Assembly: GCA_017431585.1 (NCBI GenBank)
Contig: JAFRKU010000088.1
Location: forward strand, 1 to 43,943
Origin: a bacterium
GTDB taxonomy: Bacteria; Patescibacteriota; Microgenomatia; UBA1400; PJMF01
Direction: 5' to 3'
DNA length: 43,943 nt
Under the pieces are notes generated by a model. That model had not been told where the DNA came from and did no database searches. It saw only the letters and a program-made list of their open reading frames with translations. The translations under genes were made by a program, and so were the position numbers. Each line of letters begins with the position of its first letter. Position 1 is the first letter of the stretch. Shown here piece by piece: positions 11,946-43,820 of this stretch.

Positions 11946-11977
11946 GTTGGTGTATAAATGTTTTTAAGAGTAATGGC

Positions 11978-13092: not shown

Positions 13093-13211
13093 TCCTATAA
13101 TATTTTTTCTTTACTCGAGGAAAATTTTTTATAAAAATATATTATAGGATTAATAACCGAAACTTTGCCTGGATAAAAAAGGCGAAAATTGAGTTAAAAT
13201 CCTATAATATT
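13093..13211 (-). repeat. Right arm of the ~118-bp inverted repeat pair
   Basis: Reverse complement of the 10018..10135 block. 12-mer copies at 13093..13104 (-), 13138..13149 (+, 11/12) and 13200..13211 (-). Confidence 0.8.
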
Positions 13212-22161: not shown

Positions 22162-22239
22162 AACCTATATTATACCACACTTTTGGCGATTTTTCGGAGC
22201 AAAATGGTACAAAAATGAGCAATTTGGGGTGTAATTTTG

Positions 22240-22251
22240 AGTTGTTAGGCG
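22240..22251 (+). repeat. AGTTGTTAGGCG: intergenic near-copy of the 14-mer
   Basis: ttttGAGTTGTTAGGCGag. 12 of 14 positions match the consensus. It lies between the PBP1A start and the GT2 3' end. Confidence 0.7.
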
Positions 22252-22254
22252 AGT

Positions 22255-23165
22255 TTAGATGGCAATTTGTTTGCCGAGGCGATGCAAAAACCAATGTTTG
22301 GCGGCCAATTGTTCAATTTTGGAGCCGTGGCGCAGCAAGCGCCACGCTAAACGGACTACGCGCTGGCGGACGCGCCAGTTGCCGTAGGTGGCAAAAAAGT
22401 GGAGACGGTTGCGAGTTTGATAAAAAGTTTGTAAATCTGAGCCGGAGCCGTTGGTGGCGCCGCCGTTTTTGTGCCACACGATGCTGGAGGGGACAAAACC
22501 GAGTTTGAAACCATGAGTTTTGAGGCGAGCGGATAAATCGGTGTCTTCGTAATACAAAAAATATTGGTCGTCAAATACGCCGGTGGTGGCTAAAACTTCG
22601 CGGCGAATCAAAAAACAGCAACCGGTGGCAAAATCGAGCTCGGTTTCGTGCTCAAATTGGCCGCGGTCGATTTCGTCAACACCGCGATGACAAGTGAGCA
22701 AATTGTCCCAATCGATACTGCCGCCCGCAAACCAGATGACGTGGCCGCGCTGATCGGCTGGGTAGTCGGTGCGGTGGAATTCGCAGCCGGGGGCAAAGTA
22801 AATTTTGGGACTGGCTAAGCCCCAATCTGGATGGGCGTGCAAACTGGCGAGCAGATGCGCCAAAAAGTCTGGCTGCACGAGTGTATCGGCATTGAGGAGC
22901 AAAAAATAATCCGGATTGAATTCGCGACTGGCGACGGCAAAACCTAAATTATTGCCGCCGGTGAAGCCCAAATTGGTATCGGAGCGTACCAGTTGGGTGG
23001 CAGCGGGGGCGTTTGGGGGTAGTATATACGGGTTTTGGATGCATTATCGATGACGAAGGTGCGCACCTGATAATCGCCCGCCTTGAGGGCAGCTAAACTG
23101 GCCAGGACGGCGGTAGTATCCTCGTCGGTATTGTAGTGGACAATAATAATCGCAATTTTATCCAT
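22255..23165 (-). pseudogene. Family-2 glycosyltransferase interrupted by a 1-nt frameshift
   Basis: ORF 23165..22944 encodes MDKIAIIIVHYNTDEDT...FVIDNAS and then turns to nonsense. ORF 22971..22255 continues NLGFTGGNNLGFA...LLLNADT.... Adding one A to the A4 run (plus-strand T-run 23033..23036) gives a continuous ...VIDNASKNPYILPPNAPAATQLVRSDTNLGFTGGNNLG.... Confidence 0.7.
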
Positions 23166-23201
23166 AGAAGGGGTATTATACCATAAAATAAGGCGAAATG
23201 G

Positions 23202-24068
23202 CTACAAGATCTCTTCGGTGGTGTCATCTGGCGAGTGTTTCCATGAGAGCAGATAGCTATCGCGCCGCATTTTGTCGTCGCTGCCGACCAGTTTGCCTTC
23301 GCCGCGCAAAATGCGCTCAAAAGGTTCGCAATGGGGACAACCGCCGTGGGGGCATTTGAAAGCCTGGAGTTTGCGGGCGGTGGCGATACGCCGGCCGATG
23401 TCTAGCAGCTGGGCACGAGCGTCGGCGAGCGAGGGCAAAGGTTTGGGCGTGAGCTCGTCGTGGAGCTCCAGATACCAGTAAGCGGCGTCGCGGACGTGGT
23501 ATTTTTGGCAATAGGTAGCCAGAAGGAGGTAAATGGGCAGCTGGAGAGAGCTTTCGTTTTCGACGGTTTTGCTGGTTTTGAAATCAATAATGGTGACGGT
23601 TTGGTCTTCGGGGTGATAAGTGAGCCAGTCGAGTTTGCCGCACAAAATGATGTTTTCGTCCTCCGAGAGCCAAAATTCGGGTAAATCGGCTTTAATTTTG
23701 ACGGCCAAACCGGTGAGCGGTCCGGGATGATTCATGACCCGCTGAAGCATGGCCAGGCCGCGATCATGATAAGTTTTTTCCAAACTTTCGCTGGTGAATC
23801 CGCCTTTTTCGCCGGTAAATTGCGGCCAGTGGCGCTCAAATTGAGCGACCAAACTTTCTTGGAAACGCTCGCTGCTTTTTTTGGTGGACAAGTTTTCTAA
23901 AATGTCGTGGACGGCGATGCCCAGGGAAAGCGAAGGTGAGACAATTTGCAATTTGTGGCGGGTTTGAGGGTCTTTGTAGACGTTTTTAAGATAGTAAGCG
24001 CGCGGACACGCCAGGTAATCGCTGATACTACTGTGGGAAATCCAGGTGGCAGAATATTTATCACTCAT
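23202..24068 (-). CDS. PD-(D/E)xK nuclease, Cas4/RecB-like with Fe-S cysteines
   Basis: 288 aa. One N-terminal Cys (DYLACPRAYY), the core GKLDWL...VTIIDFKTSK, and C-terminal FKCPHGGCPHCEPF (C-x5-C-x2-C). ATG 24068 lies 7 nt after TGATATAAT (-10 at 24081..24076). Confidence 0.7.
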   Translation of the reverse strand: MSDKYSATWISHSSISDYLACPRAYYLKNVYKDPQTRHKLQIVSPSLSLGIAVHDILENLSTKKSSERFQESLVAQFERHWPQFTGEKGGFTSESLEKTYHDRGLAMLQRVMNHPGPLTGLAVKIKADLPEFWLSEDENIILCGKLDWLTYHPEDQTVTIIDFKTSKTVENESSLQLPIYLLLATYCQKYHVRDAAYWYLELHDELTPKPLPSLADARAQLLDIGRRIATARKLQAFKCPHGGCPHCEPFERILRGEGKLVGSDDKMRRDSYLLSWKHSPDDTTEEIL

Positions 24069-24090
24069 GGAAGCGATTATATCACAAAAT

Positions 24091-24120
24091 CAAACAAAAC
24101 CCGCCCGAATTTCGGGCGGG
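24091..24120 (-). terminator. Rho-independent terminator (minus strand)
   Basis: Perfect palindrome CCCGCCCGAA-t-TTCGGGCGGG (24100..24120), followed on the minus strand by TTTTGTTTG. Confidence 0.8.
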
Positions 24121-24146
24121 TGGCATGTTTATCATCTGAAAACGGC

Positions 24147-25043: not shown

Positions 25044-25122
25044 TTTGTCTTTCTATTTTAGTCTTTTTGAGCGATTTATTGACATTTTTATAACTATGTC
25101 TAAACCGCTGTTAATATTTAAT

Positions 25123-25168
25123 ATTATATCATATAAGGCCACTTTTGTCAAGAGGCAATTTAGCCTGG
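25123..25168 (-). promoter_or_regulatory. Sigma-70-type promoter with conserved upstream module (copy C)
   Basis: Minus strand reads CCAGGCTAAATTGCCTCTTGACAAAAGTGGCCTTATATGATATAAT. The -35 is at 25151..25146, the spacer is 17 nt, and the -10 is at 25128..25123. Confidence 0.6.
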
Positions 25169-25191
25169 AAAAATGTGGTATAATCGAAAAC

Positions 25192-26361: not shown

Positions 26362-26397
26362 TTGACGGATAGTGTATAATAGAGGTATAATAATAGT

Positions 26398-27213
26398 ATG
26401 AGCGAGAAACTACCAGTTAGCGTGATCATTATTGCCCGGAATGAAGCGGCGAATTTGCGGCGGTTGCTGCCGCAGTTGGTTTGGGCGAGCGAAGTGATAG
26501 TGGCAGCTAATGACTGCCAAGACGAGACGGTGGCGGTGGCGGAGGAAAACGGAGCGCGGGTGGAAACCATCGAGACAACTGATTTTGCGGCGCTGCGGAC
26601 ACGGGCGATGGATTGGGCGAGCCAGCCGTGGCTGTTTTATGTGGACGCCGACGAGCGGGTGACACCGGCTTTGCAGGCGGAAATCGCGGGGCTGGTGACG
26701 CAAGCTGGCAGTCGGGTGACGGCGGGGCGATTGCGCCGGCTTAATTTCCACTACGGAGCGCCGATGCGCTACGGTGGCTGGCAAAATGACTACGTGACGC
26801 GTATTTTTCGGCGCGATAGTTTGCAAGGTTGGCAGGGAGAAATCCACGAAAGCCCGGTTTTTGAGGGTGAGGTGAAAACGCTGCTGTCGCCTTTGTGGCA
26901 TTTGACTCATCGGTGCACGGCGGATAATTTGCGCAAGAGTGCTGATTGGACAATTAAGGAAGCGCGTTTGCTAGCGGCTAGTCCCATCGCACCGGTGACA
27001 GCGGTGACAATTGCGCGCAAAATGAGCATGGAATTTTTCCGCCGCTATATGCGCGATGGTGGCTGGCGCGACGGGATGGCGGGTTTTGTGGAAAGTCTGG
27101 TGCAAGCGATGAATCGGGGTTTGGTGTATATCCAAGTGTGGGAATTGCAACAGCAGCCCACACTGGCCGGTAAATATGAGCTACTGGAAAAAGAAGTGCA
27201 AAATCAGGTATAA
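26398..27213 (+). CDS. Family-2 glycosyltransferase
   Basis: 271 aa: VSVIIIARNEAANLRRLLPQL...WLFYVDADERV (DxD). ATG lies 6 nt after TATAAT 26386..26391. Confidence 0.8.
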   Translation: MSEKLPVSVIIIARNEAANLRRLLPQLVWASEVIVAANDCQDETVAVAEENGARVETIETTDFAALRTRAMDWASQPWLFYVDADERVTPALQAEIAGLVTQAGSRVTAGRLRRLNFHYGAPMRYGGWQNDYVTRIFRRDSLQGWQGEIHESPVFEGEVKTLLSPLWHLTHRCTADNLRKSADWTIKEARLLAASPIAPVTAVTIARKMSMEFFRRYMRDGGWRDGMAGFVESLVQAMNRGLVYIQVWELQQQPTLAGKYELLEKEVQNQV

Positions 27214-27221
27214 TTTGAGTT

Positions 27222-28328
27222 ATGCGAATTGTATTTTACTCACCATATTTACCTAAACATTTCGGTGGCGGCGAAAAATATTTGTTTGATACGGCGCTGG
27301 TGTACGCGCAAAAACATCGCGTGGATATTGCTTTGCCGGCGGATTGCGATCAAAAAGATGTGGACAAAATTAAAAAAGCTTATCAAAAACATTTGGGCGT
27401 GGATTTAAAGGCGCTGAATTTCGTCATTTCACCATTCGGAGCAGCGAAAAAAAAGTGGCAACGGTTGCTGTGGACCATGCGCTACGACGTGGTGTATTTT
27501 GTGACGGACGGGAGTGCGTTTTATTCGCTGGCGCGGCGCAACATTATGCATATTCAGGTGCCACTGCTTTTGGGGCGAAAAAGTGGTTGGGAGCGAGTGA
27601 AGTTTAAGCGGTTTAAAGTGATTAACGCCAACTCGAATTTTACCAAAAAAACCGTGGAAAAATATTGGGATATCAAGGTAAATATGGTGTGCCAACCTGG
27701 GGTGGAGGTTGGCGAGTTTCAGTTGCCGCCGGCGGCTACCAAAGAAAAAATTATTTTAAACGTGGGCCGGTTTTTTGACAGTTTGCATACCAAAAATCAG
27801 GATTCGCTGGTGGAATTTTGGCGCGAGTTGTGCCAAAAGCATCCGGAAGAGACGAAAGATTGGAAATTGGTACTGGTAGGCAAGGTGGAAAGCGAAGAGT
27901 ATGCGGCGCGGGTGGCGCAATTGGCGGCCGGGGCGAGCGTGGAAATATATCACGAAGTGTCGCACGAACAATTGGTGGAGTGGTACCGGCGAGCGGCGAT
28001 TTATTGGCATGCGACCGGCTGGCGCGATCAAGAATGGGAACATCCGGAACGAATGGAACATTTTGGGATTTCTACGGTGGAAGCGATGGCGGCCGGAGCG
28101 GTGCCGATTGTAGTGGCCAAAGGCGGACAAAAAGAAATTTTGGGCCAGAAGTTGCGAGAGTGTGCGTGGGAAAACAAAGCTGAATGTTTGCGCTTGACAC
28201 TGCAAGTGATGAAAAATGAAAAATTGCGTCAGCAATGGAGTGAGTTGGCCAGCAAACGCGCGGCTAATTACGACATGAAACAGTTTGCGAAACGGTGTTG
28301 GCAAATGTTGGAAAGTAAAAGAATATGA
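27222..28328 (+). CDS. GT-B glycosyltransferase (family 4 / group 1)
   Basis: 368 aa. The C-terminal EHFGISTVEAMAAGAVPIVVAKGGQKEIL matches the E-x7-E region. The upstream stop TAA is embedded in a TATAAT (27209..27214) that lies 7 nt from this ATG. Confidence 0.8.
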   Translation: MRIVFYSPYLPKHFGGGEKYLFDTALVYAQKHRVDIALPADCDQKDVDKIKKAYQKHLGVDLKALNFVISPFGAAKKKWQRLLWTMRYDVVYFVTDGSAFYSLARRNIMHIQVPLLLGRKSGWERVKFKRFKVINANSNFTKKTVEKYWDIKVNMVCQPGVEVGEFQLPPAATKEKIILNVGRFFDSLHTKNQDSLVEFWRELCQKHPEETKDWKLVLVGKVESEEYAARVAQLAAGASVEIYHEVSHEQLVEWYRRAAIYWHATGWRDQEWEHPERMEHFGISTVEAMAAGAVPIVVAKGGQKEILGQKLRECAWENKAECLRLTLQVMKNEKLRQQWSELASKRAANYDMKQFAKRCWQMLESKRI

Positions 28329-30862
28329 CAACACCCATTAGCGTGGTGATTCCGGATTACAAAGGTCTGAATTTATTGCAGGCCAATTTGCCGACGGTGG
28401 TGGCGGAGTTGGTGGATGGTGATGAAATAATTATCAGCGAAGACGCGGCTGACGAGCGCAGGACACGAGAAGATTTTGTCTCCCGGTATCAGTTGCAACC
28501 GGTGGTGCGCCAGCAAGTGCCGGGGCAGGTGTGGCAAAAGTGGGTGACAATGGCGGGCAAAAAAATTCACTTAGTGTTTTTGCAGCGGGCGCAAAATGGG
28601 CGGTTTGCCCGCAATGTCAATGATGCGGTCAAGTTGGTCAACAATCGTTTCTTTTTGCTGCTAAATAACGATGTTCAGCTGCAAAAAGGCGTGCGCGAGC
28701 AGTTGTTAGGCGAGTTGGCGGACGAAAAAGTGTTTGCGGTGACGGCTCGGGAAATCGATGTCCACGATGGTCATCGGGAGTCGGGGCGCAATAAATTGTG
28801 GTGGCGGGCGGGCCGTTTTTGGCACAGCCGCGATGAAGATGTGCACAGCAGTGGCGAAACGGCGTGGGCTTGCGGGGGCAGTAGTATGTACCGGACGGCC
28901 TACTGGCGCGAGCTGGGCGGCTTTGACACGCGCTATTATCCGGCTTACTGGGAAGACATCGACGTGTCGTGGCAGGCGCGAGCGCGCGGCTACAAAGTTT
29001 TGTATAAGCACACCGCGGTGGTTAATCATGTCCACGAAACTACCAACGCGACGGTGTTTGGCCGAGAGCGAATGATAGCGATGAGTTGGCAGGCGGGGAC
29101 AAAATTTGCTTGGAAAAATAGCAACTGGTGGCAGAAGTGTCAATTTATACTGATGTATCCGTATTGGTTGCTGAAGCAATATCCACAATTGTGGTGGTGG
29201 GTGGGGGTGGTAGCGGTGTGCGCGCTGACGCGGTTGGCGGTGATTAATACGCCGCACGGCTTGACGGTGGACGAGGCGGCCATCGGCTACAATGCTTATG
29301 GTATTTGGACGCAAAGGCGCGACGAATGGGCCAATAAATTGCCAGTGTCGTTTCGCTCTTACGGTGACTTTAAAGCGCCGCTGGCGATTTATGCGACCGC
29401 ACCGTGGGTGGGTATGCTGGGCATGCGGGTGTGGAGTGTGCGCTTGAGTTTTGTTTTGGCTGGTATCATGAGCGTGTGGGGACTGATGAAACTGGTGGAC
29501 GAATTGTTGTCTCGTGTCAAGCCCAATCATCAAACGTGGGCGGCGGCGGCCGGTTTTTTGATGACGGTGTCGCCGTGGCATTATCATTTTTCACATTTGG
29601 GCTTTGAAAACAATTGGGCGCTGGTCGGTGTGCTGTGGGGCATGTATGGTTGGCTGAAATTTGTGCACGCGCGCACCAACTGGCGCGGCAAACTTTTGAG
29701 TGAGACGTGGTGGAGCGCGCCGCTTTTGGGCAGCGGAGTGGCGCTGGTGGCGGCACTGTATAGTTATCATGCGGCCAAAGTGGTAGTGCCTTTGTTTGTG
29801 CTGGTGGCGCTGATCGGTTACTGGCCGGTGTGGCGAGCGCGGTGGCGAAGTTTGGCGGTGGCGCTGATGGTGGCGGTGGTGCTGGCGTGGCCTTTGCTGG
29901 CGGATAGCATTTGGGGCGAAGGTTTCACTCGGGCGGGTAGCTCGTTTATGTTTGATGCCCAAGTGCCATGGTCGCAAAAGGCGACGATGCTGGTGAGCAG
30001 TTATACGGCGCACTGGCAGCCGGCCTATTTATGGGCGGGGCAATTGTACGAAGCGCAAACGACGACGGGTCAATGGTTGGCGAATGTCCGCCACGGCGAC
30101 GGGGCGCACGGGATTCTAACGCTCGCGGAGACAAGCTTGATACTATTATTAATAGCCAGCGTGACACGTTTTGGTGAAGTGCGCCGTGATGCTGGCGAAG
30201 CAATAGCGTGGGGCGCGGCGTGGTGGCTGCTGGGCGTAGTACCGGCGGCGCTGACGACGCAAGTGCCACATAGTAACCAAAGTTTTTTGGCGGTGCCGGG
30301 AGTGATAATTTTGGCGGTGACCGGTTGGGCGACATGGCGAGCGTGGTGGCGGAGGCAAAATTTAAAATTTTATCCCGGAGTGATGGTGTTGGTGGCGGTA
30401 TTGATTAGTTTGGGCTTTATGCAACGAGTGAGCGCTTACAAAATGGTGTTTGGCAGCGCCAAACAGATAGCTGCTGTGAGTTCACAGCCAGATGTGGCGA
30501 CTGATGTGGCACGGCAGACGGCCAGCGATTATTTTTTCGCTACGGATTTGTTGGATGCTGTGCGCGAGAGTGAAAAAATTGAGCATCGGGGGACGTCAAT
30601 CGTGCTGTCGACTCATTTTGAGCAAGAATATATTTATGTGTTGATTGCGCGGCACATCAAACCACTGGAGCGATATTTGGCCAATGAATTTTTGCAAGTC
30701 AGTCAGTTGGAAGAAAAATATTTTTTGGATAAAAAGCGTATTTTGATTTACACGCCGGATAAATTAATCAATCGCGATTGGAAGCAACATTGTGCGCGTA
30801 CTACGGTGTGGATCGATGGCGCGGGCCGGCCGAAAATAACGCTGTGCGTGACGAAAGAGTAA
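28325..30862 (+). CDS. Fusion protein: family-2 glycosyltransferase + GT-C (ArnT/PMT family-39-like) membrane glycosyltransferase
   Basis: 845 aa. The N-terminal ~270 aa read ISVVIPDYKG...LLLNNDVQL...YPAYWEDIDVSWQARARGYKV (GT2). The rest is polytopic, with the first-loop motif LTVDEAAIGYNAYGIW...YGDFKAPLAIY. The ATGA overlap with the previous gene indicates coupling. Confidence 0.8.
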   Translation: MTTPISVVIPDYKGLNLLQANLPTVVAELVDGDEIIISEDAADERRTREDFVSRYQLQPVVRQQVPGQVWQKWVTMAGKKIHLVFLQRAQNGRFARNVNDAVKLVNNRFFLLLNNDVQLQKGVREQLLGELADEKVFAVTAREIDVHDGHRESGRNKLWWRAGRFWHSRDEDVHSSGETAWACGGSSMYRTAYWRELGGFDTRYYPAYWEDIDVSWQARARGYKVLYKHTAVVNHVHETTNATVFGRERMIAMSWQAGTKFAWKNSNWWQKCQFILMYPYWLLKQYPQLWWWVGVVAVCALTRLAVINTPHGLTVDEAAIGYNAYGIWTQRRDEWANKLPVSFRSYGDFKAPLAIYATAPWVGMLGMRVWSVRLSFVLAGIMSVWGLMKLVDELLSRVKPNHQTWAAAAGFLMTVSPWHYHFSHLGFENNWALVGVLWGMYGWLKFVHARTNWRGKLLSETWWSAPLLGSGVALVAALYSYHAAKVVVPLFVLVALIGYWPVWRARWRSLAVALMVAVVLAWPLLADSIWGEGFTRAGSSFMFDAQVPWSQKATMLVSSYTAHWQPAYLWAGQLYEAQTTTGQWLANVRHGDGAHGILTLAETSLILLLIASVTRFGEVRRDAGEAIAWGAAWWLLGVVPAALTTQVPHSNQSFLAVPGVIILAVTGWATWRAWWRRQNLKFYPGVMVLVAVLISLGFMQRVSAYKMVFGSAKQIAAVSSQPDVATDVARQTASDYFFATDLLDAVRESEKIEHRGTSIVLSTHFEQEYIYVLIARHIKPLERYLANEFLQVSQLEEKYFLDKKRILIYTPDKLINRDWKQHCARTTVWIDGAGRPKITLCVTKE
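28699..28712 (+). repeat. GCAGTTGTTAGGCG 14-mer, exact copy 1
   Basis: gcgcgaGCAGTTGTTAGGCGagttgg. Reads Q-L-L-G in frame within the GT2 domain. Confidence 0.9.
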
Positions 30863-30863
30863 G

Positions 30864-32561
30864 ATGTGGCGAGCGTGGTGGCAACAACTACAAACACAAA
30901 AAATCCATTGGGGACATTGGAGTGTGATTGTGTTGATCGCCTTACTAGTGCGGGTGTGGCAATTTGGGCGGGTGCCGGTGAGTTTGTATTGGGACGAGCA
31001 AGCGCTGCTTTATGACGCGTGGAGTATTGCCCAAACGGGCCGAGATTATCACGGTCAATTTTTACCGCTGGTCGCTTTCAATAGTTTCGGCGATTTCAAA
31101 CCGAGCGGCTATTTTTATGCGGTGGCACTGGTGCTGCAAATCGTGGGTGCCAGGGAATGGGCGGTGCGGGTGCCGAGTTTGCTATCGGGGGTGATCAGCG
31201 TGATTTTAATTGGGATTATTGCTGATAAAATGTGGGGAGGTAAACGGCGTGGCGGCTGGAGGGTGGGCGAAATAGCGGCTTTGGTGGCGGCGATCAATCC
31301 GGCTTTTGTTCATTTGTCGCACGTGGGGTTTGAAACGCATGCGGCGACGTGTTGGCTTCTGGCTGGCGTGGCTCTCCTCTACCCGCGCGACGATGGGCGC
31401 TGGTCGTGGCAGTTGTTAGGCGGGGAATTGTGTTTGCTGGCGAGTTTTTACACTTATCATGCCACGCGGGTGATTGCGCCACTTTTGGGCATTTATTTGC
31501 TGGCGTGGAATATGTGGCGTGCGCACACGCGTCAGATCGCATGGCGAGAGAATATGGCGAAGCTGGCGGCGATGGTGGCGGTGGCAGCCGTGGGGGTGAT
31601 GCCTTTGGTGTGGCCGACGGCGAGCCAAAGTGTGACACATCGGCTGGCGGAAACTTCTATTTTTGCGCAAAGGGAAATCATTGAGGCGAGTAATCAGTGC
31701 CGAGCACTCGCGGGCGACACATGGGCGGCGAAGTGGTGGTGTCATCGTTACTGGTTTTGGGCGCGGGAAATGGCGTCGCGCTGGAGTGCGCATTTGAATT
31801 TGGATTATTTGTTTTGGCGCGGTGACGAGAACTGGCGGCACAGTATTCATTGGGCGGGCGTGTTTTTCCCGTGGGAGGCAATCGGTTTATTTTTGGGACT
31901 GGTGCATTTCGGAGCCAGGCGTAGACAAGGGCGAGCGGCCATCGGCTTTTTAATTTTTTGGTTGATGGTGGCTTTGCTGCCGGCGAGTGTGACGCTGGCG
32001 ACGCCGCATTTGTTGCGTTCGCTTTCATCGGTGCCGGTGTTAATTATAGCGGTGGCCGCTGGTTGGTGGTGGCTGGCAGAATTAATGGCGAAGTGGCGGT
32101 GGCGACAACTCGTGACGGTGGGGATCGTGGCGGTGTATGCAGCAGGCACGCTGGCGTGGCAATATGCGTACACGCATTGGTATGCGGCGGCAAGTGGTAG
32201 TGACTGGCAAGATGGCTACGAAGCGGCGCTGGCGCAATTGCGGGCGTGGCAAGAAAAATATCCGGATGATCCAGTGTATATAACCCGCGAGCTAGGTCGG
32301 CCGAGCGTTTATTATTTTTGGGAGAACAAAATTGACCCGCAGCGGGTACAAGCCACGGCGGAGACGGCGGCTTTTGATCAAGGTGAGTATTTGAATTTTG
32401 CACCCGAGCACGTCAGCTTTGGGATAGATTGGCACGAGGGGCCGCAATTGGTGATGATCACCCCGGCGGAAACCGGGCGCGTGACGGCGTGGGAAGCCAG
32501 CAGCGAAGTGCACAATAGTGCGGGCGAGGTGGTTTTGGTAGTGGGACGGAGTCAGCGATGA
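30864..32561 (+). CDS. GT-C (ArnT/PMT family-39-like) membrane glycosyltransferase
   Basis: 565 aa, polytopic, with VSLYWDEQALLYDAWSIAQTGRDYHGQFLPLVAFNSFGDFKPSGYFY in the first loop. Paralog of the neighbouring genes. Confidence 0.8.
   Translation: MWRAWWQQLQTQKIHWGHWSVIVLIALLVRVWQFGRVPVSLYWDEQALLYDAWSIAQTGRDYHGQFLPLVAFNSFGDFKPSGYFYAVALVLQIVGAREWAVRVPSLLSGVISVILIGIIADKMWGGKRRGGWRVGEIAALVAAINPAFVHLSHVGFETHAATCWLLAGVALLYPRDDGRWSWQLLGGELCLLASFYTYHATRVIAPLLGIYLLAWNMWRAHTRQIAWRENMAKLAAMVAVAAVGVMPLVWPTASQSVTHRLAETSIFAQREIIEASNQCRALAGDTWAAKWWCHRYWFWAREMASRWSAHLNLDYLFWRGDENWRHSIHWAGVFFPWEAIGLFLGLVHFGARRRQGRAAIGFLIFWLMVALLPASVTLATPHLLRSLSSVPVLIIAVAAGWWWLAELMAKWRWRQLVTVGIVAVYAAGTLAWQYAYTHWYAAASGSDWQDGYEAALAQLRAWQEKYPDDPVYITRELGRPSVYYFWENKIDPQRVQATAETAAFDQGEYLNFAPEHVSFGIDWHEGPQLVMITPAETGRVTAWEASSEVHNSAGEVVLVVGRSQR
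31409..31422 (+). repeat. GCAGTTGTTAGGCG 14-mer, exact copy 2
   Basis: gtcgtgGCAGTTGTTAGGCGgggaat. Reads Q-L-L-G in frame within a membrane segment. Confidence 0.9.
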
Positions 32562-34189
32562 AAAAATGGTGGTCGCGACTGAAACCATGGCTGCTGGAAT
32601 ACGGTTTGCTGGTGGTGATCGTGGTGGCGGGCAGTTGCTGGCGCCTCAGTCAGCTGGGACAATTGCCTCAGGGACTGAATCGTGACGAGGCGGCTCTCGC
32701 TTACAACGCGCTGCTGGTGGCACAAACCGGACAAGACGAATGGCAACAGGTTTATCCGGTGTTTTTTAAAAGTTTTGGTGATCAAAAATTACCTTTGTAC
32801 CCATATATTTTAGTGATTTTGTTCAAATTTTTACCACAGACAGATGTGATAGTGCGCTTGCCGAGTGCCATCTGCGGGATACTATTAATAATTGTCACTT
32901 ACGCTGTGGCCAAAATGGTGACCGGGCGCCACGGCTGGCTGGGTGCGAATTTAGCGGCGGCGATGGTGGCTGCCAGTCCGGTGTTTATTTGGTACTCGCG
33001 GGGTGCGTGGGAGGCCAATGTGGGTTTGCTGCTGCTGGCGGTGGCTGCAGGGCTTGCCTGCTGGCAATATCAAACGGGGAAATCTTGGTCGGTGAGGCGA
33101 TTAATCTTGATCCTATTATTATTGATGGGCAGTTGTTTGGCGTATAATGCGCCGCTGCTGATTTTGGTGGTGGCGATGTGGCTGATACCAATAGTTTGTT
33201 GGCGACGAGGTATCGGCTGGTGGGCGCCGCTGCTAGCGGGCGTGGCGGCGGTGGTGGTGATTGGTTTCGGGTTGCTGTTGCCTGTCGTCAATCAAAAACA
33301 AGGCATTAGTATTTTTAATGATCCAACGCTCATGTATGAATACACTTTGTATCGGCAGCAATTTAGCGGGGTAGCTCAAAAATTGGTGGGTAATTACTGG
33401 GTGTATGAAGCGCGATTAATACTGGAGGCCGTGATCAAAAGTTTTTCGCCGCAATTTTGGCAGCACGGCGGGTCACATCCGTGGCATCAACTTTCGGGTG
33501 AGGGTCATGTGACCATCATAGTGATGATAATTTTTGATGTGACTTTGATTTACCAGGTGGTGACGCTGGTGGCGCAAATGATCAAGCGACAAAAATGGTG
33601 GCAGCAAAAAAACTTTTGGTGGCTAGTGATATTATTGGTAACTTTGGTGCCGAGCGTGATTACCACAGATAGTCCGCATGCCACTCGGAGTTTACAATTT
33701 TTTTGGGTGCTGGCGGTGGGTGCGGGTTGGTCGCTGGCTGATTTATGGTCACAATTGGTGGCGGAGACAAAACGGCGTCAAATTGCTCTCACATCTGGCT
33801 CCGAAATGATAATTTTGGTTTTAAGTGTAGGGATCATTTTGCTGACGGGACAAAATTATTGGACTAATTATCAAACGAAATTGCGGGAGCATAATATTTA
33901 TCACAACAATTGGGCGCAGTTGTTAGGCGAGATAGAAAGTGAACGACTGACATTGGTGCGGGGTCCGGGCAGTGAGTATGAATACATTAAAATAGCGTGG
34001 GTCAGTCACATGAGTCCGGAAATTTTTTGGTCAACTTTGAGTCGGGCGGGCAGCGATGGAGTTGGTTTGCAAGGCGGGCGATATTTGGCGAATTTTCATT
34101 TCGTGGCGCCGACGGAAGAAGTGAGTGGTGAGTGGCAAAAAATTATTTTAAATGAGCAGACAGGTGAATGGGAGGTACAAGATGATTAG
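32558..34189 (+). CDS. GT-C (ArnT/PMT family-39-like) membrane glycosyltransferase
   Basis: 543 aa, polytopic, with LPQGLNRDEAALAYNALLVAQTGQDEWQQVYPVFFKSFGDQKLPLYPY. ATGA overlap with the previous gene. Confidence 0.8.
   Translation: MKKWWSRLKPWLLEYGLLVVIVVAGSCWRLSQLGQLPQGLNRDEAALAYNALLVAQTGQDEWQQVYPVFFKSFGDQKLPLYPYILVILFKFLPQTDVIVRLPSAICGILLIIVTYAVAKMVTGRHGWLGANLAAAMVAASPVFIWYSRGAWEANVGLLLLAVAAGLACWQYQTGKSWSVRRLILILLLLMGSCLAYNAPLLILVVAMWLIPIVCWRRGIGWWAPLLAGVAAVVVIGFGLLLPVVNQKQGISIFNDPTLMYEYTLYRQQFSGVAQKLVGNYWVYEARLILEAVIKSFSPQFWQHGGSHPWHQLSGEGHVTIIVMIIFDVTLIYQVVTLVAQMIKRQKWWQQKNFWWLVILLVTLVPSVITTDSPHATRSLQFFWVLAVGAGWSLADLWSQLVAETKRRQIALTSGSEMIILVLSVGIILLTGQNYWTNYQTKLREHNIYHNNWAQLLGEIESERLTLVRGPGSEYEYIKIAWVSHMSPEIFWSTLSRAGSDGVGLQGGRYLANFHFVAPTEEVSGEWQKIILNEQTGEWEVQDD
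33129..33142 (+). repeat. GCAGTTGTTtGGCG: 13/14 near-copy in a different reading frame
   Basis: Read as GGC AGT TGT TTG GCG (G-S-C-L-A). In this frame the consensus TAG would be a stop, and the copy carries TTG instead. Confidence 0.75.
33916..33929 (+). repeat. GCAGTTGTTAGGCG 14-mer, exact copy 3
   Basis: ttgggcGCAGTTGTTAGGCGagatag. Reads Q-L-L-G in frame near the C-terminal soluble part. Confidence 0.9.
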
Positions 34190-35987
34190 TGTTGTTTACG
34201 CGGTACACAATGAAGAAAAAATTTTGGCGCGCTCGCTGCAATCGGTGCAGCAGTGGACGGATGAAATCGTGGTGGTGGACGGTGAATCGACTGACACGAC
34301 GGCGGAAATCGCTAAAAGTTTTGGGGCGCGAGTGATAGAAACCACTAATAAGGCGAATTTCCATATCAACAAACAGATGGCAATTGATAAAGCGACCGGT
34401 GACGTGATTTTGCAGTTGGATGCGGACGAAGTGGTGGACGAGCAGTTTCGCGATTTTGTGCAAATGGTGGATCGGGAGCGACCGAGCGAGTGCGTGGCGT
34501 GGTATATTAAGCGGAAAAATTTATTTTTCCGGCGGTGGCTGACGAAAGGTGGGCAGTATCCGGACATGGTGATTCGGTTGTTTTATCGCGAGAAAGCTTA
34601 TTTGCCGCAAAAAGATGTACACGAGCAAATGACAGTGGATGGAGCTGTGGGCGTGGCTACGGGTCACTTGTTGCATTTTGCCAATCCGGATTTGGCCAGT
34701 TACTGGCGCAAATTTGACACCTACACCAGTTTTAAGGCGGCACAGCTGGCGGAAGAAAAAGTGCCGATTAATAAGTTTAACTTTTTTAAGTATTGGTTTT
34801 GGAAGCCGGCGGCCACTTTTTGGAGCATTTGGTTGCGCCATCGCGGCTACGTGGACGGCGGGGCCGGGTTTTTGTTTGCGCTTTTTTCCGGCTGGCATCA
34901 TCTGGTGGCGTACGCCAAATATGTGGAAAATGAGCGGCTGATGCCAGAGGGCAAAATTCAGGTTTATGTCCCGGGCAACAGTGTGGAAAAAAAGCAAGAC
35001 CGAGGAGTGGGGCGCTACACGCGTTGGCTGCTGGAGACGCTGGAAGAGCGTGGTCAGGTGACGCTCACCGACAAGCGAGAGACGGCGGACATTGTTCATT
35101 ATCCGTGGTGGGATTTGTATAAAGCGACGCTGCAAAAAGTGAACAGTGACCAAAAATTGGTGGTGACGGTGCATGATATTATTCCATATTTGTTTCCCGA
35201 TGATTATCCGGTGGGCATCATGGGCAAAATTAATTTTTGGCGTCAGCGACACCGGTTGCGACAAGCGACGATGGTGATTGCAGACAGCAATGCCACCAAA
35301 AAAGATGTCAGCGAAAAATTTCATCTGGATTCGGAAAAAATAAAAGTGGTGTATTTGGCAGCCAATCCGAATTTGCAACCGGCCAGCAACCAAGACATCG
35401 TCCAAGTGAAAAAAAGTTATGCTTTAAGCGAGCGCTACATTTTGTACGTGGGCGACATAAATTTCAACAAAAATTTGCCGCAACTGATTAAGGCTTTGAA
35501 ATTTGTGGATGATCAAGAGATGGATTTGGTGATGGTAGGCAAAAATTTTGTGCCGCAAGAAATTCCAGAGTGGCAAGTGATTAGCGAACAGTTGGATTTA
35601 AGTGAGGTGAAAAATCGGGTTAAGTTTTTGACGAGTGTGACGACTGATCGCGAACTAAGCGCTTTGTACAGCGGGGCGAGTGTCTACGTGCAACCTTCGT
35701 ATTACGAAGGTTTCGGTTTGCCGGTGCTGGAAGCGATGAGTTGCGGTTGTCCGGTGGTGTGCGCCAAAAATTCGTCACTGAGCGAAGTGGGCGGTCAGGC
35801 GGCGATTTATGCGGCCAGTACCCGAGCGGAAGATTTGGCAGCAGCGATTAACAAAGTCCAGCAACTGACGGCGAAGCAGCGCCAAGAAGTGATTGAACAG
35901 GGCCAAAGTTGGGCGGCGACTTTTACCTGGGATAAAACGGCGGCAAGAGTGGAAAAAGTGTATGCACAAGTGGTGGCAGCAAATTAA
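34182..35987 (+). CDS. Fusion protein: family-2 + family-4 glycosyltransferase
   Basis: N-terminus MISVVYAVHNEEKILARSLQSVQQWTDEIVVVDGESTDTT...LQLDADE (GT2). C-terminus YYEGFGLPVLEAMSCGCPVVCAKNSSLSEVGG (GT4). Start set to ATG 34182, 6 nt after GGAGG, overlapping the upstream gene by 8 nt. Confidence 0.8.
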   Translation: MISVVYAVHNEEKILARSLQSVQQWTDEIVVVDGESTDTTAEIAKSFGARVIETTNKANFHINKQMAIDKATGDVILQLDADEVVDEQFRDFVQMVDRERPSECVAWYIKRKNLFFRRWLTKGGQYPDMVIRLFYREKAYLPQKDVHEQMTVDGAVGVATGHLLHFANPDLASYWRKFDTYTSFKAAQLAEEKVPINKFNFFKYWFWKPAATFWSIWLRHRGYVDGGAGFLFALFSGWHHLVAYAKYVENERLMPEGKIQVYVPGNSVEKKQDRGVGRYTRWLLETLEERGQVTLTDKRETADIVHYPWWDLYKATLQKVNSDQKLVVTVHDIIPYLFPDDYPVGIMGKINFWRQRHRLRQATMVIADSNATKKDVSEKFHLDSEKIKVVYLAANPNLQPASNQDIVQVKKSYALSERYILYVGDINFNKNLPQLIKALKFVDDQEMDLVMVGKNFVPQEIPEWQVISEQLDLSEVKNRVKFLTSVTTDRELSALYSGASVYVQPSYYEGFGLPVLEAMSCGCPVVCAKNSSLSEVGGQAAIYAASTRAEDLAAAINKVQQLTAKQRQEVIEQGQSWAATFTWDKTAARVEKVYAQVVAAN

Positions 35988-37647
35988 AAAATACTGGTGG
36001 CCAGGTATAATTGCGGTACTGATTGTGTTCTGTTTCGGACCATATATGCGCTTGGGGTTGCCGGTGACGCATGACGGCGAAAATCATGTGGCTCGTTTTG
36101 CTCAGTATTATTTAGCGCTGCGCCAAGGTCAAGTGCCGCCGCGACTGGGGCCGACGCTGGAAAACGGCTACGGTTATCCGGTGTTTAATTTCAATTATCC
36201 GCTGAGCAATATTTTGAGCGTGCCGCTGATAGCAGTGCGTCTACATCCGGAGCTGGTGTTTAAAATTTTGGCGGTGGGATACGTGTGTTTGGGCGCCTGG
36301 AGCTGGTGGCAGTGGCAAAAGGCGCGCGGGATGAAGCGGGCGGCTTTGGGTTGGTCGACGCTGGCTTACGTGTGGGCGCCGTACTTATATAATAGTATCT
36401 GGTATCGGGGTAACATAGGTGAAATTGCGGCCTGGGCGTTGGTGCCGCTGGTGGCGTGGCAAATTGAGCGGTGCCGCGAGGACAAAGCGTGGGCGTGGAG
36501 TACGCTGACAATCTCGCTGGCGGCCTTTTGCCTGTGTCACAATATTTTCGTGATGCTCATGATCCCGTGTTTGTTTGGGTACGCGCTGGTGCGAATGCGA
36601 GGGATGACAGAAAAAAAACGCTTCGGGCAGTTGTTAGGCGCGTTTGGACTAACGGTGGCAGTGACATTGTGGTTTTGGTTACCAGCTTTGGTGGAAAAAA
36701 AGTTGACGGTGCTGGACGGGGCGGGACTCAATCAAGAATATTTGCTCCACTTCCCTACCCTGTCGCAACTGCTCAGCTTTAATTACAGCGGCGGTTTGTC
36801 GTATCCGGGGAGGATCGATGGTTTGAGTTTGGGGGCGGGACTGGTGTTGGTGCTGACACTGGGAGTGGCGAGCGTGAAGACGCTATTGTGCAGATGCAAC
36901 CGACAGTCGTTAACGACTAAAATAGTCGTTAACGACTATTTGTTAATTGGCGCGTGGGTATTAATTGTTTTACAATTGACGATGAGCGCGCCGGTGTGGC
37001 GGTGGATACCGTTTTGGCATTATGTGCAATTTCCGTGGCGGTTGAGTTTGGCGTGGCAATTAATCCTATGCTGGCTGCTGGCCGAAATGGTCAATTTTTG
37101 GTCGCTACGCCTGGCTCCGAAATGGCAAAAATGGTTAGATATGGCGTTGGTCATAATTTTTGGGGCGCAATTGGTGCTGATGATCTACGGTTGGCCGCGA
37201 GATTTTTTTCATCGCGACAAAATCGAATATCAACTCTACTCGCAAGCGACTTCCACCGCGCACGAAAACACGCCGCGGAGTTTTACTTTTGAAATTTGGC
37301 GGGAGGTGGCGGAAGCGCCGCAAGTGGCCAGTGGCGAGGGTGAGTTATTAGGCGCGAGCGTGCTGAATACGACGCACAAAAAATTTGAAGTGGTGTGCGA
37401 AAGCGAGCAGTGTGTGATCATCGAGCCGACGGCGAATTTTGCGGGGTTTGCCACGCGGGTGGACGGGGCGCGCGCGACGTATGTGGACAATGGTGACATC
37501 GGCGGACGGATTGCTTACATTCTCGGGCGCGGGACGCACACGGTGGAAACACGGTTTACGGAGAAGACGTGGCCGCGGTTGGTGGGCGATGGGATCAGTG
37601 TGCTCGCCGTTGTGGCGATCATTTACATGGCGACCCGGCGGCGCTAG
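35962..37647 (+). CDS. Polytopic membrane protein, GT-C-like (PTPS-related membrane domain family)
   Basis: About 561 aa from ATG 35962 (MHKWWQQIKKYWWPG...). The first loop reads PVTHDGENHVARFAQYYLALRQGQVPPRLGPTLENGYGYPVFNFNYPLSNIL, the pattern of the so-called 6-pyruvoyl-tetrahydropterin-synthase-related membrane proteins. Overlaps the upstream gene by 26 nt. Confidence 0.55.
   Translation: MHKWWQQIKKYWWPGIIAVLIVFCFGPYMRLGLPVTHDGENHVARFAQYYLALRQGQVPPRLGPTLENGYGYPVFNFNYPLSNILSVPLIAVRLHPELVFKILAVGYVCLGAWSWWQWQKARGMKRAALGWSTLAYVWAPYLYNSIWYRGNIGEIAAWALVPLVAWQIERCREDKAWAWSTLTISLAAFCLCHNIFVMLMIPCLFGYALVRMRGMTEKKRFGQLLGAFGLTVAVTLWFWLPALVEKKLTVLDGAGLNQEYLLHFPTLSQLLSFNYSGGLSYPGRIDGLSLGAGLVLVLTLGVASVKTLLCRCNRQSLTTKIVVNDYLLIGAWVLIVLQLTMSAPVWRWIPFWHYVQFPWRLSLAWQLILCWLLAEMVNFWSLRLAPKWQKWLDMALVIIFGAQLVLMIYGWPRDFFHRDKIEYQLYSQATSTAHENTPRSFTFEIWREVAEAPQVASGEGELLGASVLNTTHKKFEVVCESEQCVIIEPTANFAGFATRVDGARATYVDNGDIGGRIAYILGRGTHTVETRFTEKTWPRLVGDGISVLAVVAIIYMATRRR
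36627..36640 (+). repeat. GCAGTTGTTAGGCG 14-mer, exact copy 4
   Basis: cttcggGCAGTTGTTAGGCGcgtttg. Reads Q-L-L-G in frame. Confidence 0.9.
37342..37354 (+). repeat. gAGTTaTTAGGCG: near-copy of the 14-mer
   Basis: gggtGAGTTATTAGGCGcgagc. Differs from the 13-nt core at two positions and reads E-L-L-G. Confidence 0.5.
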
Positions 37648-37655
37648 TGGGGGCT

Positions 37656-38708
37656 TTAAAGTTCGAGCAGCCAGTTGGCTAGTTTTTGGCGTTTGGCCAT
37701 GAGTTCGATGTAGTCGTGGACAGAGGGTTCGGCCAGTTGACGTTGGCGCTCGGTTTCGTCGGTGACATCTGGCATGGCTTTGATGAGCGCTTGTTGGATT
37801 TCTTCGTCAGTGACAGTGACTTTTTCGGCCGTCATCAAGGCGTCTAAAATGAATTCCAATTGCAAATCTTGCAGCGCGCGTAACAAATACTGCTGGCTGA
37901 CAGCCTGCTCGCTCATGCCGGTGTTGTGGAAATAGTCGGTGAGCGTCAAGTTATATTGTTGGAGTTGCTGGGCGAGTTTGTCTAGTTCACGCTGGGCCGT
38001 GCGGCGCACTAGGAGGGCGGAAACTTTGGGTTGGAGTTCGCGCAAAAGTTCCATCAGGGCTTCGTCGGTAGCGCGAGCGCGCATTTGCTCGGCGGTAAGG
38101 GTGGGCGGTTGTGGACTTTTGTCTTCTTTTTTATCTTTGCTAGCAGCGTCTTTTTTCAGTTGAGCTTGCTCGTCTTGAATCGTTTTGAGCAAACGTTTTT
38201 TGGCGTTGGCTAAAAATTTTTTGTAGTCTGGGAGTTTAACAGTTGTTTTTTGCGGCAGATAGGCCACAATTTCCCAGTCGGCGTTTTTGTCGGCTTTTTT
38301 CACGAGCAGCTCTGGTTCGGCGAAAAGTTTGACGTCGGACTTTTTCAAGGCTGCTTGGAAAGCGTCGCTACCGACAGCGCGCATGACTTCTTGGATTAAA
38401 TAGTCACGATTGACGCGCTCTTCGGCGATGCTGACGGGTACTTTGCCCGGGCGGAAGCCATCTTGGCGCATGCCGCGGGCGACTTGGCGCAAGGTTTTGG
38501 TGTACGCCGGCTCGACGGTGGCCCAAGCGATGGTAAACTCGAGGGTGGGATCATCGACTAGCATGTCTTTGAGAAGGTCAGCGGCGGTGGGTTCGTGGGC
38601 GTGATCGTGATGGTGAGCGACGGCTTTTTTGGTCGGTGCGGCCGCTTTTTTCTCTTTGGCAGCGCTGCTAGTTTGAGTTGTGGTTTTTTTCTTGGTTTCT
38701 TTGGTCAT
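37656..38708 (-). CDS. tig: Trigger factor lacking the PPIase domain
   Basis: The N-domain has GFRPGKVPVSIAEERV, and the C-terminal arm-domain helices follow directly. No FKBP-type segment lies between them. There is a ~45-aa K/T/A/H-rich N-terminal extension (…AVAHHHDHAHEP…). Start moved to ATG 38708, 7 nt after TGATATAAT (-10 at 38721..38716). Confidence 0.75.
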   Translation of the reverse strand: MTKETKKKTTTQTSSAAKEKKAAAPTKKAVAHHHDHAHEPTAADLLKDMLVDDPTLEFTIAWATVEPAYTKTLRQVARGMRQDGFRPGKVPVSIAEERVNRDYLIQEVMRAVGSDAFQAALKKSDVKLFAEPELLVKKADKNADWEIVAYLPQKTTVKLPDYKKFLANAKKRLLKTIQDEQAQLKKDAASKDKKEDKSPQPPTLTAEQMRARATDEALMELLRELQPKVSALLVRRTAQRELDKLAQQLQQYNLTLTDYFHNTGMSEQAVSQQYLLRALQDLQLEFILDALMTAEKVTVTDEEIQQALIKAMPDVTDETERQRQLAEPSVHDYIELMAKRQKLANWLLEL

Positions 38709-38932
38709 GTGGCGTATTATATCATATTTAGTGGCAGTTGGGGGAGGGAAAATTGACCAGAATTTGACAAACGCTGTTTTATTGCTATAATCATCGCTAA
38801 AATATTTTGAATACAAAATTATTGGTTACTTTTTATATTTTACCTCGCATTGTATTGTCGAAGCTATGTACGTCCACGCCAGCGATGGCAAACTCACGGA
38901 AGGCGGTTGCGCCAATGGAGACGGAAACTTCG

Positions 38933-39700
38933 TCAACCCGTTTGCAACTGCACCGCCAGATCATAGATGACGTTTTTGGCCGAAACATTGTGGCGCAGGA
39001 GTTCGCGCGCGCGCGATAGCGCGCGCGCGAGGTGGGCCGAGCGCAGTGCGCCCGGCCCGCTACCGTCAGTAACACGGGCGTTGCCGGCTGCAGGCGTGGC
39101 CACCGTGGTTTCGCCGGCGTCAAGCAGTGCGACGGCTTCAGCCAGCCAAGCGGACAGCGCTCGGTCGGTAAATTGCGTTTGGGTGAGCGCGTCATCGGTT
39201 TTGCTTAATTTTTTGTATTCACTGGTGAGGGCGTCGCTTAATTTTTGATTTAACTGGCTGGCACTCAATGACGACCAGTTGGCAACGCCCAGTTCGGCAA
39301 GCGAGGGCGAAAAATCAACGTTTTGAGCAGTTGTTAGGCGGAAAACGCGGCAGCGTGAGCGGACAGTGGGCAATATTCGGTTATCGCTGGCGGCGAGGAG
39401 CACGAGATAGACATTGGTGGGCGGTTCTTCGAGTAATTTCAGCAGCGCATTTTGCGCGGGTGGGAGACAACGGTCCATATCAGTGAGCACGAAAACCGTT
39501 GGGGTGCGGCCGCCGCTTTGAGCGACTTGCAATTGCAAGTCGCGCACCATATCGATGGCGAGCGTTTGGCCGAAATTCGGCAGCTGAAAATTGGCACTAT
39601 CAGTCAATATTTTTTGCTGGCGCAACCAATCTTGGACAAAATGCTGGGCGAGGCGGCCATCGGCGAAACTTTGCGGTGTGATGATCATGATACTTGGCAT
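38933..39700 (-). CDS. holB: DNA polymerase III delta' subunit
   Basis: AQNALLKLLEEPPTNVYLVLLA...ILPTVRSRCRVFRL (sensor/SRC motif), with no intact P-loop. Start set to ATG 39700 (MPSIMIITPQ...) behind GGGAG. Confidence 0.7.
   Translation of the reverse strand: MPSIMIITPQSFADGRLAQHFVQDWLRQQKILTDSANFQLPNFGQTLAIDMVRDLQLQVAQSGGRTPTVFVLTDMDRCLPPAQNALLKLLEEPPTNVYLVLLAASDNRILPTVRSRCRVFRLTTAQNVDFSPSLAELGVANWSSLSASQLNQKLSDALTSEYKKLSKTDDALTQTQFTDRALSAWLAEAVALLDAGETTVATPAAGNARVTDGSGPGALRSAHLARALSRARELLRHNVSAKNVIYDLAVQLQTG
39327..39340 (+). repeat. GCAGTTGTTAGGCG 14-mer, exact copy 5 (antisense to holB)
   Basis: ttttgaGCAGTTGTTAGGCGgaaaac. On the coding (minus) strand it is read as R-L-T-T-A-Q. Confidence 0.9.
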
Positions 39701-39749
39701 AAATCTGCTCCCTTGCACTTTGGTTGTCATTATTATATAATGAGTGTCA

Positions 39750-41489: not shown

Positions 41490-41520
41490 CAGGAGAAAAA
41501 AGATTTGGTAAAAGGTAGAT

Positions 41521-42576: not shown

Positions 42577-42579
42577 ACC

Positions 42580-43788: not shown

Positions 43789-43820
43789 AGGACTATTATA
43801 ATAGTATACAGAAAGCAGAC

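Follow-up and report, generated by a model that had tools for sequence, protein, structure and literature searches.

We found that a 14-nt word, GCAGTTGTTAGGCG, recurs at nearly equal intervals along one strand of a chromosomal stretch in an uncultured, ultra-small rumen bacterium of the Patescibacteria (candidate phyla radiation, CPR). The DNA analyzed, contig JAFRKU010000088.1 over its full length of 43,943 nt, is referred to here as the window, and its forward strand as the + strand. The best matches to the window proteins carry the names Patescibacteria, Microgenomates, or Woesebacteria. Copies of the word are genuine, belong to the DNA level rather than to the encoded peptides, are specific to this lineage, and lie co-oriented and evenly spaced in a single stretch of the sequence sampled. 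We tentatively read them as a local array of recognition sites and weigh this reading below against explanations based on DNA uptake, on replication or repair, and on processes without function.

Results

Copies of the 14-mer in the window

The window contains five exact copies of GCAGTTGTTAGGCG, all on the + strand, at the positions given in a preliminary description that had been made from the sequence alone. The word appeared in none of 100 dinucleotide-preserving shuffles, and Markov models of order 0 to 5, trained on the window with the copies masked, predict between 1e-5 and 3.7e-4 copies on the + strand against the five observed, an enrichment of at least 10,000-fold. Beside the exact copies stand three degenerate ones, for a total of eight between 22,238 and 39,340. 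Their conserved part is AGTTGTTAGGCG, with GC or TG in front of it, and the 14-mer is G/T-rich, as is the strand that carries it. Near-copies had been reported at 22240, 33129, and 37342: the first position is the start of an exact 12-nt core in the copy at 22238, the second copy matches at 13 of 14 positions, and the third is real but begins at 37341. As previously claimed, the window holds no reverse-complement copy, here at up to two mismatches, and the flanks of the copies are unrelated (ungapped identity 0.25–0.28, vs 0.26 expected from composition). Further matches with three mismatches (for example, at 34726 and 37575) were rejected as copies; they are conserved coding matches that relatives also have. 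The reading frames described earlier also hold, and the eight copies are as follows.

28699..28712, + strand: exact copy 1, within a GT2/PMT fusion gene (28325–30862); reads Q126-L-L-G129
31409..31422, + strand: exact copy 2, within a PMT_2-type membrane glycosyltransferase gene (30864–32561); reads Q183-L-L-G
33916..33929, + strand: exact copy 3, within the gene at 32558–34189; reads Q454-L-L-G
36627..36640, + strand: exact copy 4, within a membrane-protein gene (35893–37647), in an indel-rich, poorly conserved loop; reads Q246-L-L-G
39327..39340, + strand: exact copy 5, antisense within holB (38933–39799, − strand), following a consensus + strand promoter by ~530 nt and preceding pilB by ~420 nt
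22238..22251, + strand: variant TGAGTTGTTAGGCG, with the 12-nt core from 22240 exact; intergenic, 3 nt beyond the stop codon of a − strand GT2 gene (22255–22971) and upstream of the promoter and start (22161) of the PBP1A gene
33129..33142, + strand: variant GCAGTTGTTTGGCG, 13/14; in the frame in which TAG would be a stop codon, where it reads TTG
37341..37354, + strand: variant TGAGTTATTAGGCG, 13/14 relative to the 22238 variant; reads E-L-L-G, its frame being that of the QLLG copies

A literature search found no paper containing the 14-mer sequence. A scan of a genome collection with the bare 14-mer returned at least 120 matches, with unrelated chance singletons among the matches listed, and the same was true of a metagenome scan; a complete scan of viral sequences gave 110 single chance matches and no arrays. 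The few candidates for multiple copies were each rejected. In a cyanobacterial metagenome-assembled genome (L081, CAWCAE010000001.1), the 14-mer sits in a TPR-type tandem repeat that encodes QLLGE and has homologous flanks; it occurs there 10 times exactly and once with one mismatch over 3492–4765, with a 126-bp period, as a coincidental coding repeat. Two further matches (L254 and L278) are the same SSB gene at both ends of a circular contig, and another two (L059 and L099) agree with chance expectation.

A signal at the level of DNA

Within the 13,057 codons of the window, the peptide QLLG is encoded four times at the copies, compared with 0.41 expected. All four sites use CAG-TTG-TTA-GGC, flanked in each case by G and G, a codon choice with a probability of 0.0072 per site that includes the minority codons CAG (35%) and TTA (12%); the probability of identical choice at all four is ~3e-9. 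The remaining copies include one antisense within holB, one that is intergenic (22238), and one in a third frame, where TAG has been changed to TTG (33129). Because of this single codon set and of the antisense, intergenic, and third-frame copies, the signal is one that acts at the DNA level and is accommodated by coding sequence. The identical codons, together with the antisense and intergenic copies, rule out selection on the peptide. The preliminary description had proposed such a DNA-level signal, as opposed to paralogy, and codon identity, the comparison with orthologues, and an independent assembly all strengthen that proposal.

Several familiar kinds of element were also considered for the copies and rejected. 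They are not promoters, as there is no −10 box at a fixed distance and no promoter site is predicted at them. A sigma-54-like reading (GG-N10-GC) fails because the upstream G is present in only three of six copies. Associated hairpins or inverted repeats were tested and likewise rejected.

Origin of the copies

An independent assembly in ENA (L121) is 99.3% identical to the window over 2,855 bp and carries the copy at 28699, the only site that it covers, which removes assembly artefact as an explanation. The nearest other genomes available for comparison (L122/L123, L124, L127, and L128) encode PilB proteins 78–80% identical to that of the window (MBQ6438413.1) and share with it the gene order of glycosylation operon, tig, holB, and pilBTC. 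None of these has a copy of the 14-mer at up to two mismatches. The preliminary description had named conservation at orthologous positions in relatives as a check; the relatives turn out to differ in both DNA and residues. Their orthologous sites have equal length, unrelated DNA (7–8 of 18 nt identical), and other residues, with NLLQ, SMIF (31409 site), DFLP or TVVE (33916 site), and LGLG or NIYQ in place of QLLG, and with LSFLT where the window has GSCLA at the 33129 site. In a 15-sequence alignment of the first host protein, Arg R124 and Leu L127 are invariant, whereas G129 is unique to the window. Because the orthologous sites have the same length but different DNA and residues, the word was written in place, in this lineage only, by substitutions that include non-synonymous ones at weakly conserved positions.

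The same comparison disposes of three other origins. Paralogy is contradicted by the unrelated flanks and by the absence of any insertion relative to the orthologues, and a miniature mobile element by the same flanks and the lack of indels. A horizontally acquired island does not agree with the uniform composition of the window genes, in GC content at third codon positions (GC3, 0.48–0.65) and in third-position GC skew, nor with the comparison among genomes: each gene places the window, L123, and L127 at equal distances from one another, with values ranging from those of P565 (0.49, 0.45, 0.47) to those of PilB (0.78, 0.80, 0.80).

The idea that there is no signal at all, and that chance, a shared peptide motif or paralogy, a miniature mobile element, or an assembly artefact accounts for the copies, draws on the G/T-rich composition that the word shares with its strand, on the frequency of LLG-type peptides in membrane glycosyltransferases, and on the QLLGE repeat of L081. 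We regard its probability as negligible: at most 4e-4 copies are expected against five found, the codons are identical, the flanks are unrelated, and L121 keeps the word. These results exclude each of the five sources named.

Among the relatives, L127 (positions 6871–8333) has tig on the + strand, inverted with respect to the window and L123, and an extra Inhibitor_I42 gene between tig and holB; the tig–holB junction has thus been rearranged within the clade.

Orientation and spacing

All eight copies lie on the G-rich + strand, including two where the genes run the opposite way. Third-position GC skew on this strand is positive (+0.26 to +0.58) whichever way the genes run, which identifies the + strand as the leading-strand sequence. 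According to Markov models and to counts of near-matches, however, composition alone favors the + strand 2–6 fold, so that eight of eight has a probability of 0.04–0.29. The strand specificity claimed earlier therefore stands as an observation but goes only weakly beyond what GC skew predicts; it fits a polar function without being independently established beyond composition. Strand asymmetry is unusually strong in the window as a whole, with a GC skew of 0.14–0.29 throughout; the relatives have a skew of 0.15–0.30 at much lower GC content (0.40–0.47, vs 0.51 in the window).

The gaps between successive exact copies are, as previously given, 2710, 2507, 2711, and 2700 bp, with a coefficient of variation (CV) of 0.033. 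Random placements are equally regular with a probability of ~4e-5, whether the ends are fixed or free. Gene lengths (1.6–2.5 kb) do not yield a period of ~2.7 kb, and the word is absent from relatives that have these genes. None of the three imperfect copies falls on the lattice: those at 33129 and 37341 are separated by 714–787 bp from a perfect copy, and the third is the one at 22238. We infer that what matters is one good site per ~2.7 kb, since this pattern would be expected if sites are costly and each serves a neighborhood of limited range.

Locality

All eight copies fall within 17.1 kb (22,238–39,340), seven of them inside genes. The rest of the window (1–22,237 and 39,341–43,943; 26.8 kb) contains no match at up to three mismatches, and neither does a second locus of 6.5 kb (L130 and the overlapping L131). 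This second locus very probably comes from the same species: the AspRS cluster to which it belongs contains MBQ6437951.1, whose accession is 462 below that of the window PilB and which, as is true of the window genes, has no entry in the contig index; an ENA member is identical to it at 466 of 468 positions. The GC content (0.517) and skew (+0.215) of L130 also match those of the window. A density of one copy per 2.7 kb would put ~12 copies into these copy-free 33 kb, and the clustering of the copies has a probability of 0.007–0.014. Composition fails to explain it, because the density of near-matches with four to six mismatches is only 1.25–1.9 times higher inside the array than outside. In the ~50 kb sampled of this species, the array thus looks local, which weakens readings that imply genome-wide spread, such as an uptake sequence or Chi and the FtsK-orienting polarizing sequences (KOPS). 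The copy-free part at the left end includes a 2.3-kb stretch without open reading frames (ORFs).

Genes and promoters around the array

The main features around the copies are these.

26398..37647, + strand: long, tightly packed envelope or protein glycosylation operon of 11 kb, with four exact and two variant copies in sense orientation
26362–26391, + strand: promoter-like site of the glycosylation operon (11/12)
38765..38793, + strand: perfect consensus sigma-70-type promoter in the holB–tig spacer (TTGACA, 16 nt, TG-extended TATAAT, as TGnTATAAT)
39744..43788, + strand: pilB, pilT, and pilC (type IV pilus), directly downstream of the last copy and without a copy inside

The glycosylation operon comprises GT2, GT4, the GT2–PMT fusion, two PMT_2-like genes, GT2+GT4, and the membrane protein. 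The promoter at 38765–38793 runs antisense through holB toward pilB, which, as judged from its position, would imply either a ~950-nt pil leader or an RNA antisense to holB; the relative L123 has no corresponding promoter. pilB, pilT, and pilC are the only competence-type genes in the window, and a stand-alone Cas4-like PD-(D/E)XK nuclease is encoded near the array. Neighboring uncharacterized proteins were considered as binders of the word and rejected, as they have no DNA-binding or defense-system matches; one of 298 aa looks like a membrane or Ig-like protein. On the same contig as pilB, pilT, and pilC, 5215–7554 encodes a 779-aa ATPase resembling HerA, VirD4/TraG, and FtsK (PADLOC mad8, E = 2e-17) that may take part in DNA translocation.

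Across the first 13 kb, where the 14-mer has no copy, there is instead a + strand module of −10 box and ribosome-binding site (TATAAT..AGGA..ATG) every 2.5–3.4 kb. A second word, ATATTATAGGA (reverse complement TCCTATAATAT), has 12 matches in the window at up to one mismatch, compared with 0.25 expected. Eleven are in intergenic spacers of the first 13.2 kb (1332–13210), in both orientations, and the twelfth (20525) is in the PBP1A gene; related forms occur at 22162–22176 and at 38709–38735 (− strand). This word looks like a −10 box (TATAAT) joined to an AGGA ribosome-binding site that directly precedes the start codon, an arrangement with which leaders would be very short. Three of its copies are arranged as inverted repeats at 1331–1407. 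They lie in the region upstream of rnpA (1–2344), which contains no ORF of at least 100 aa and no Rfam family or tRNA, and which has a GC content of 0.477 and a GC skew of +0.20.

Other repeats were noted in the window. At 36905–36937, inside the gene at 35893–37647, a perfect 14-bp palindrome stands in tandem (AGTCGTTAACGACT-AAAAT-AGTCGTTAACGACT); its two copies, found nowhere else in the window, are read in two frames (RQSLTTKIVVNDY) in a weakly conserved loop. The palindrome is thus a further DNA-level element, and it may serve as an operator or form a cruciform. Within holB, at 38993–39044, there is a palindromic tract of alternating (GC)n (TCGCGCGCGCGCGATAGCGCGCGCGCGA). The word CGGCGGCGCTG occurs seven times on the + strand (17764, 30243, 40882, 40954, 41801, 42080, and 42923), three times in the longer form CGGCGGCGCTGCGG, and was rejected as a DNA-level signal: it is read in one frame, encodes x-A-A-L(-R) with preferred codons, and falls partly in the paralogous PilB and PilT ATPases. 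Finally, four DnaA-box-like 9-mers with one mismatch each lie within 350 bp on the − strand (11060–11416), in and before an uncharacterized ORF (11112–11603). This cluster is probably not the origin, because the GC skew does not switch there.

Discussion

We tentatively favor a model in which the array has been selected locally and its copies are polar sites where a factor that acts over ~2.7 kb, possibly one coupled to transcription, is loaded or recognizes the DNA. The 14-mer would be a cis-acting recognition word, put by point substitutions on one strand of a ~17-kb stretch (22.2–39.3 kb), so that selection, or a drive, would have placed an asymmetric word at regular intervals across one part of the chromosome. 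The perfect copies would mark out a region that begins within the glycosylation operon and ends shortly before the type IV pilus genes, and a site every 2.7 kb would leave no part of the stretch out of reach at the lowest cost in altered protein positions. It is from the pattern of the copies that we infer binding by a factor, the kind of factor that this may be, and a reason for the 2.7-kb spacing.

The version of this model that we place first, although it is doubtful when taken by itself, has the word read on the non-template strand or in the nascent RNA by a factor traveling with RNA polymerase. Such a factor would work through long, promoter-poor units in the manner of ops/RfaH or of boxA/Nus reloading. 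An anti-termination element of the glycosylation operon had been among the roles first proposed, and the locality of the array and the promoter upstream of the holB-antisense copy argue for it. Six of the eight copies lie in sense inside the 11-kb operon, copy 5 follows, after ~530 nt, a promoter that is missing in L123, and the copy-free 13 kb has regular promoter modules. Control of the ops/RfaH type is classically found in long polysaccharide operons, and reloading at a second site occurs in rrn operons. Like ops (JUMPStart) and RfaH, the array combines an asymmetric ~12-nt word, read on one strand, with long polysaccharide or surface-structure operons; besides the copies in the glycosylation operon, one lies in the putative long pil leader. 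Unlike ops (GGCGGTAGnnTG), which forms a small hairpin on the non-template strand and is present as a single leader copy, the array word has no sequence similarity to ops, and its copies are intragenic and repeated, with one in the spacer of a − strand operon. RfaH is moreover a specialized NusG paralogue, and none was found among the window proteins.

The other version, in our view rather unlikely, is modeled by analogy on ParB and Noc and has an asymmetric DNA-binding protein nucleating spreading, sliding, or bridging from the copies. A clustered organizer of this kind fits all eight positions; the window offers no candidate protein for it, and the word is not palindromic. The array resembles parS/ParB clusters (and Noc sites) in being a handful of near-identical sites, many of them intragenic, clustered in ~10–35 kb, an extent comparable to that of nucleoprotein domains formed by spreading or sliding. 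It differs from them in that parS is a 16-bp palindrome, whereas the array word is neither palindromic nor conserved across relatives, and in that parS clusters lack regular spacing and co-orientation. parS itself was rejected, as there is no match to its consensus in the window at up to three mismatches. Nor does the window contain dnaA, parA, or parB, and its GC skew keeps the same sign throughout; rnpA at 2345 is a weak hint of proximity to the origin.

Several observations weigh against a locally selected array of recognition sites. The 22238 copy, in a − strand operon spacer without a convincing + strand promoter, does not suit the transcription-coupled version, and the leader of the glycosylation operon has no copy, the first one lying 2.3 kb downstream of the promoter. 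The 14-mer has no self-structure (0 kcal/mol), unlike the ops hairpin. A word kept exact over 14 contiguous bases is also less characteristic of protein sites under ordinary selection than of base-pairing or molecular drive. The relatives with the same operon (L122–L124, L127, and L128) have no comparable repeated word of their own, and the proteins of the window include no NusG paralogue, ParB, or other DNA-binding candidate for the word. Locality is itself drawn from ~50 kb, a part of which, L130, is very probably but not certainly of this species. To our knowledge, no described system has such sites at regular kilobase intervals.

A DNA uptake sequence (DUS) or uptake signal sequence (USS), which had been suggested on account of the adjacent type IV pilus genes, is an alternative that we consider unlikely. 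The pilus and ComEC would prefer the word, biased uptake followed by recombination would spread it by molecular drive, and it would show first in fast-evolving, often exchanged surface-glycan genes. Neisseriaceae DUS are 12 nt long and Pasteurellaceae USS have a 9-nt core, and uptake sequences are the sole known class of exact words of at least 12 nt set into coding sequence by substitution; they are the best precedent for exact long words accommodated, with even spacing, in weakly conserved coding sequence. Such sequences are relatively evenly spaced, as an expected outcome of drive (PMC7811141; Karlin as cited in PMC1939737), and coding regions accommodate them preferentially in one frame and where both residue and gene are weakly conserved (PMC2817400). 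The array shares these properties. Its word is exact, belongs to the size class of 12–14 nt, exceeds its expected frequency by orders of magnitude, has a spacing more regular than random placement gives, and is species-specific as DUS dialects are; within genes it prefers one frame and falls on residues and proteins of low conservation, in an organism with type IV pilus machinery. Moreover, no two perfect copies stand close together, each imperfect copy inside the array has a perfect one nearby, and the one-strand bias could come from skew alone. The adjacency of pilB, pilT, and pilC is correct as described but is circumstantial only. However, known uptake sequences are spread genome-wide at ~1 per kb, in hundreds to thousands of copies, whereas the copies here occupy 17 of ~50 kb sampled, with 26.8 kb of the window and 6.5 kb of the second locus copy-free where ~12 copies would be expected. 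Known uptake sequences are also unbiased in orientation (PMC1939737); here all eight copies are on one strand, at the probability of 0.04–0.29 given above. In addition, drive is not known to produce anything close to so near-metronomic a spacing (CV 0.03), the relatives have no dialect of the word, and our literature search found no paper linking Patescibacteria with uptake sequences.

Locality bears in the same way on the suggestion of a polar motif of replication or repair on the leading strand, which we judge improbable, whether Chi-like (halting degradation by RecBCD/AddAB), KOPS-like (giving direction to a translocase), or a lagging-strand priming or loading site with one site per Okazaki-sized interval on the lagging-strand template. 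As with Chi, KOPS, and the SpoIIIE recognition sequences (SRS), all copies lie on leading-strand sequence regardless of gene direction, two of them where genes run the other way. A spacing of 2.7 kb is within the range of bacterial Okazaki fragments, and a maximum distance to the next correctly oriented site would suit a Chi-like role. Yet these roles are genome-wide, and the copies are confined to 17 of ~50 kb; known Chi and KOPS words are 5–8 nt and only few-fold enriched, whereas the array word is 14 nt, 10,000-fold enriched, and local. The orientation bias is largely explained by composition and not clearly beyond it, and the only relevant enzyme nearby is the stand-alone Cas4-like nuclease. 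A functionless by-product seems to us less probable still. Here, short-patch templated conversion or an error-prone process, for example from an abundant oligonucleotide or RNA template, would have put the word time and again into sites that resemble one another. Five copies exact over 14 nt, with unrelated flanks, without indels relative to the orthologues, and on one strand relative to replication, would agree with such a process, but the window has no template copy and no reverse transcriptase or retron-like gene, and the even spacing is left unexplained. The avoidance of a stop codon at 33129 and the single preferred frame point to selective filtering and say nothing of the source of the changes.

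DUS/USS, ops, Chi/KOPS, and parS thus each have at least one defining feature that the array lacks; it most resembles uptake sequences in its seating within genes and ops or parS clusters in its locality. A more speculative and, we think, improbable possibility is that a species-specific 14-nt word serves as genome punctuation, marking equal units of ~2.7 kb on one strand for a strand-specific DNA transaction. Nick-to-nick or load-to-unload processing, for example, would yield unit-length segments for export, uptake, or packaging through the neighboring type IV pilus or a VirD4/HerA-like machinery, or a clamp-like factor would be reloaded at a fixed range. Such a kilobase-scale molecular ruler would be written into coding DNA by selection strong enough to change amino acids. 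Our literature search found no description of a regular, kilobase-scale, intragenic array on one strand.

If the array is functional, it would mean that a very small genome imposes a 14-nt cis-acting signal on its coding sequence at chosen positions, at the cost of amino-acid changes, and that signals of this kind can be local and regularly spaced and not just genome-wide. The word would also provide a handle, in the form of a defined oligonucleotide, on DNA and RNA transactions of the Patescibacteria that are experimentally almost unknown, including elongation control of long envelope operons, domain organization, and DNA uptake. If copies instead prove to fill the whole genome, the word would be the first signal of the uptake type to come from outside the Proteobacteria, with a direct bearing on how nucleotide-auxotrophic episymbionts acquire DNA.

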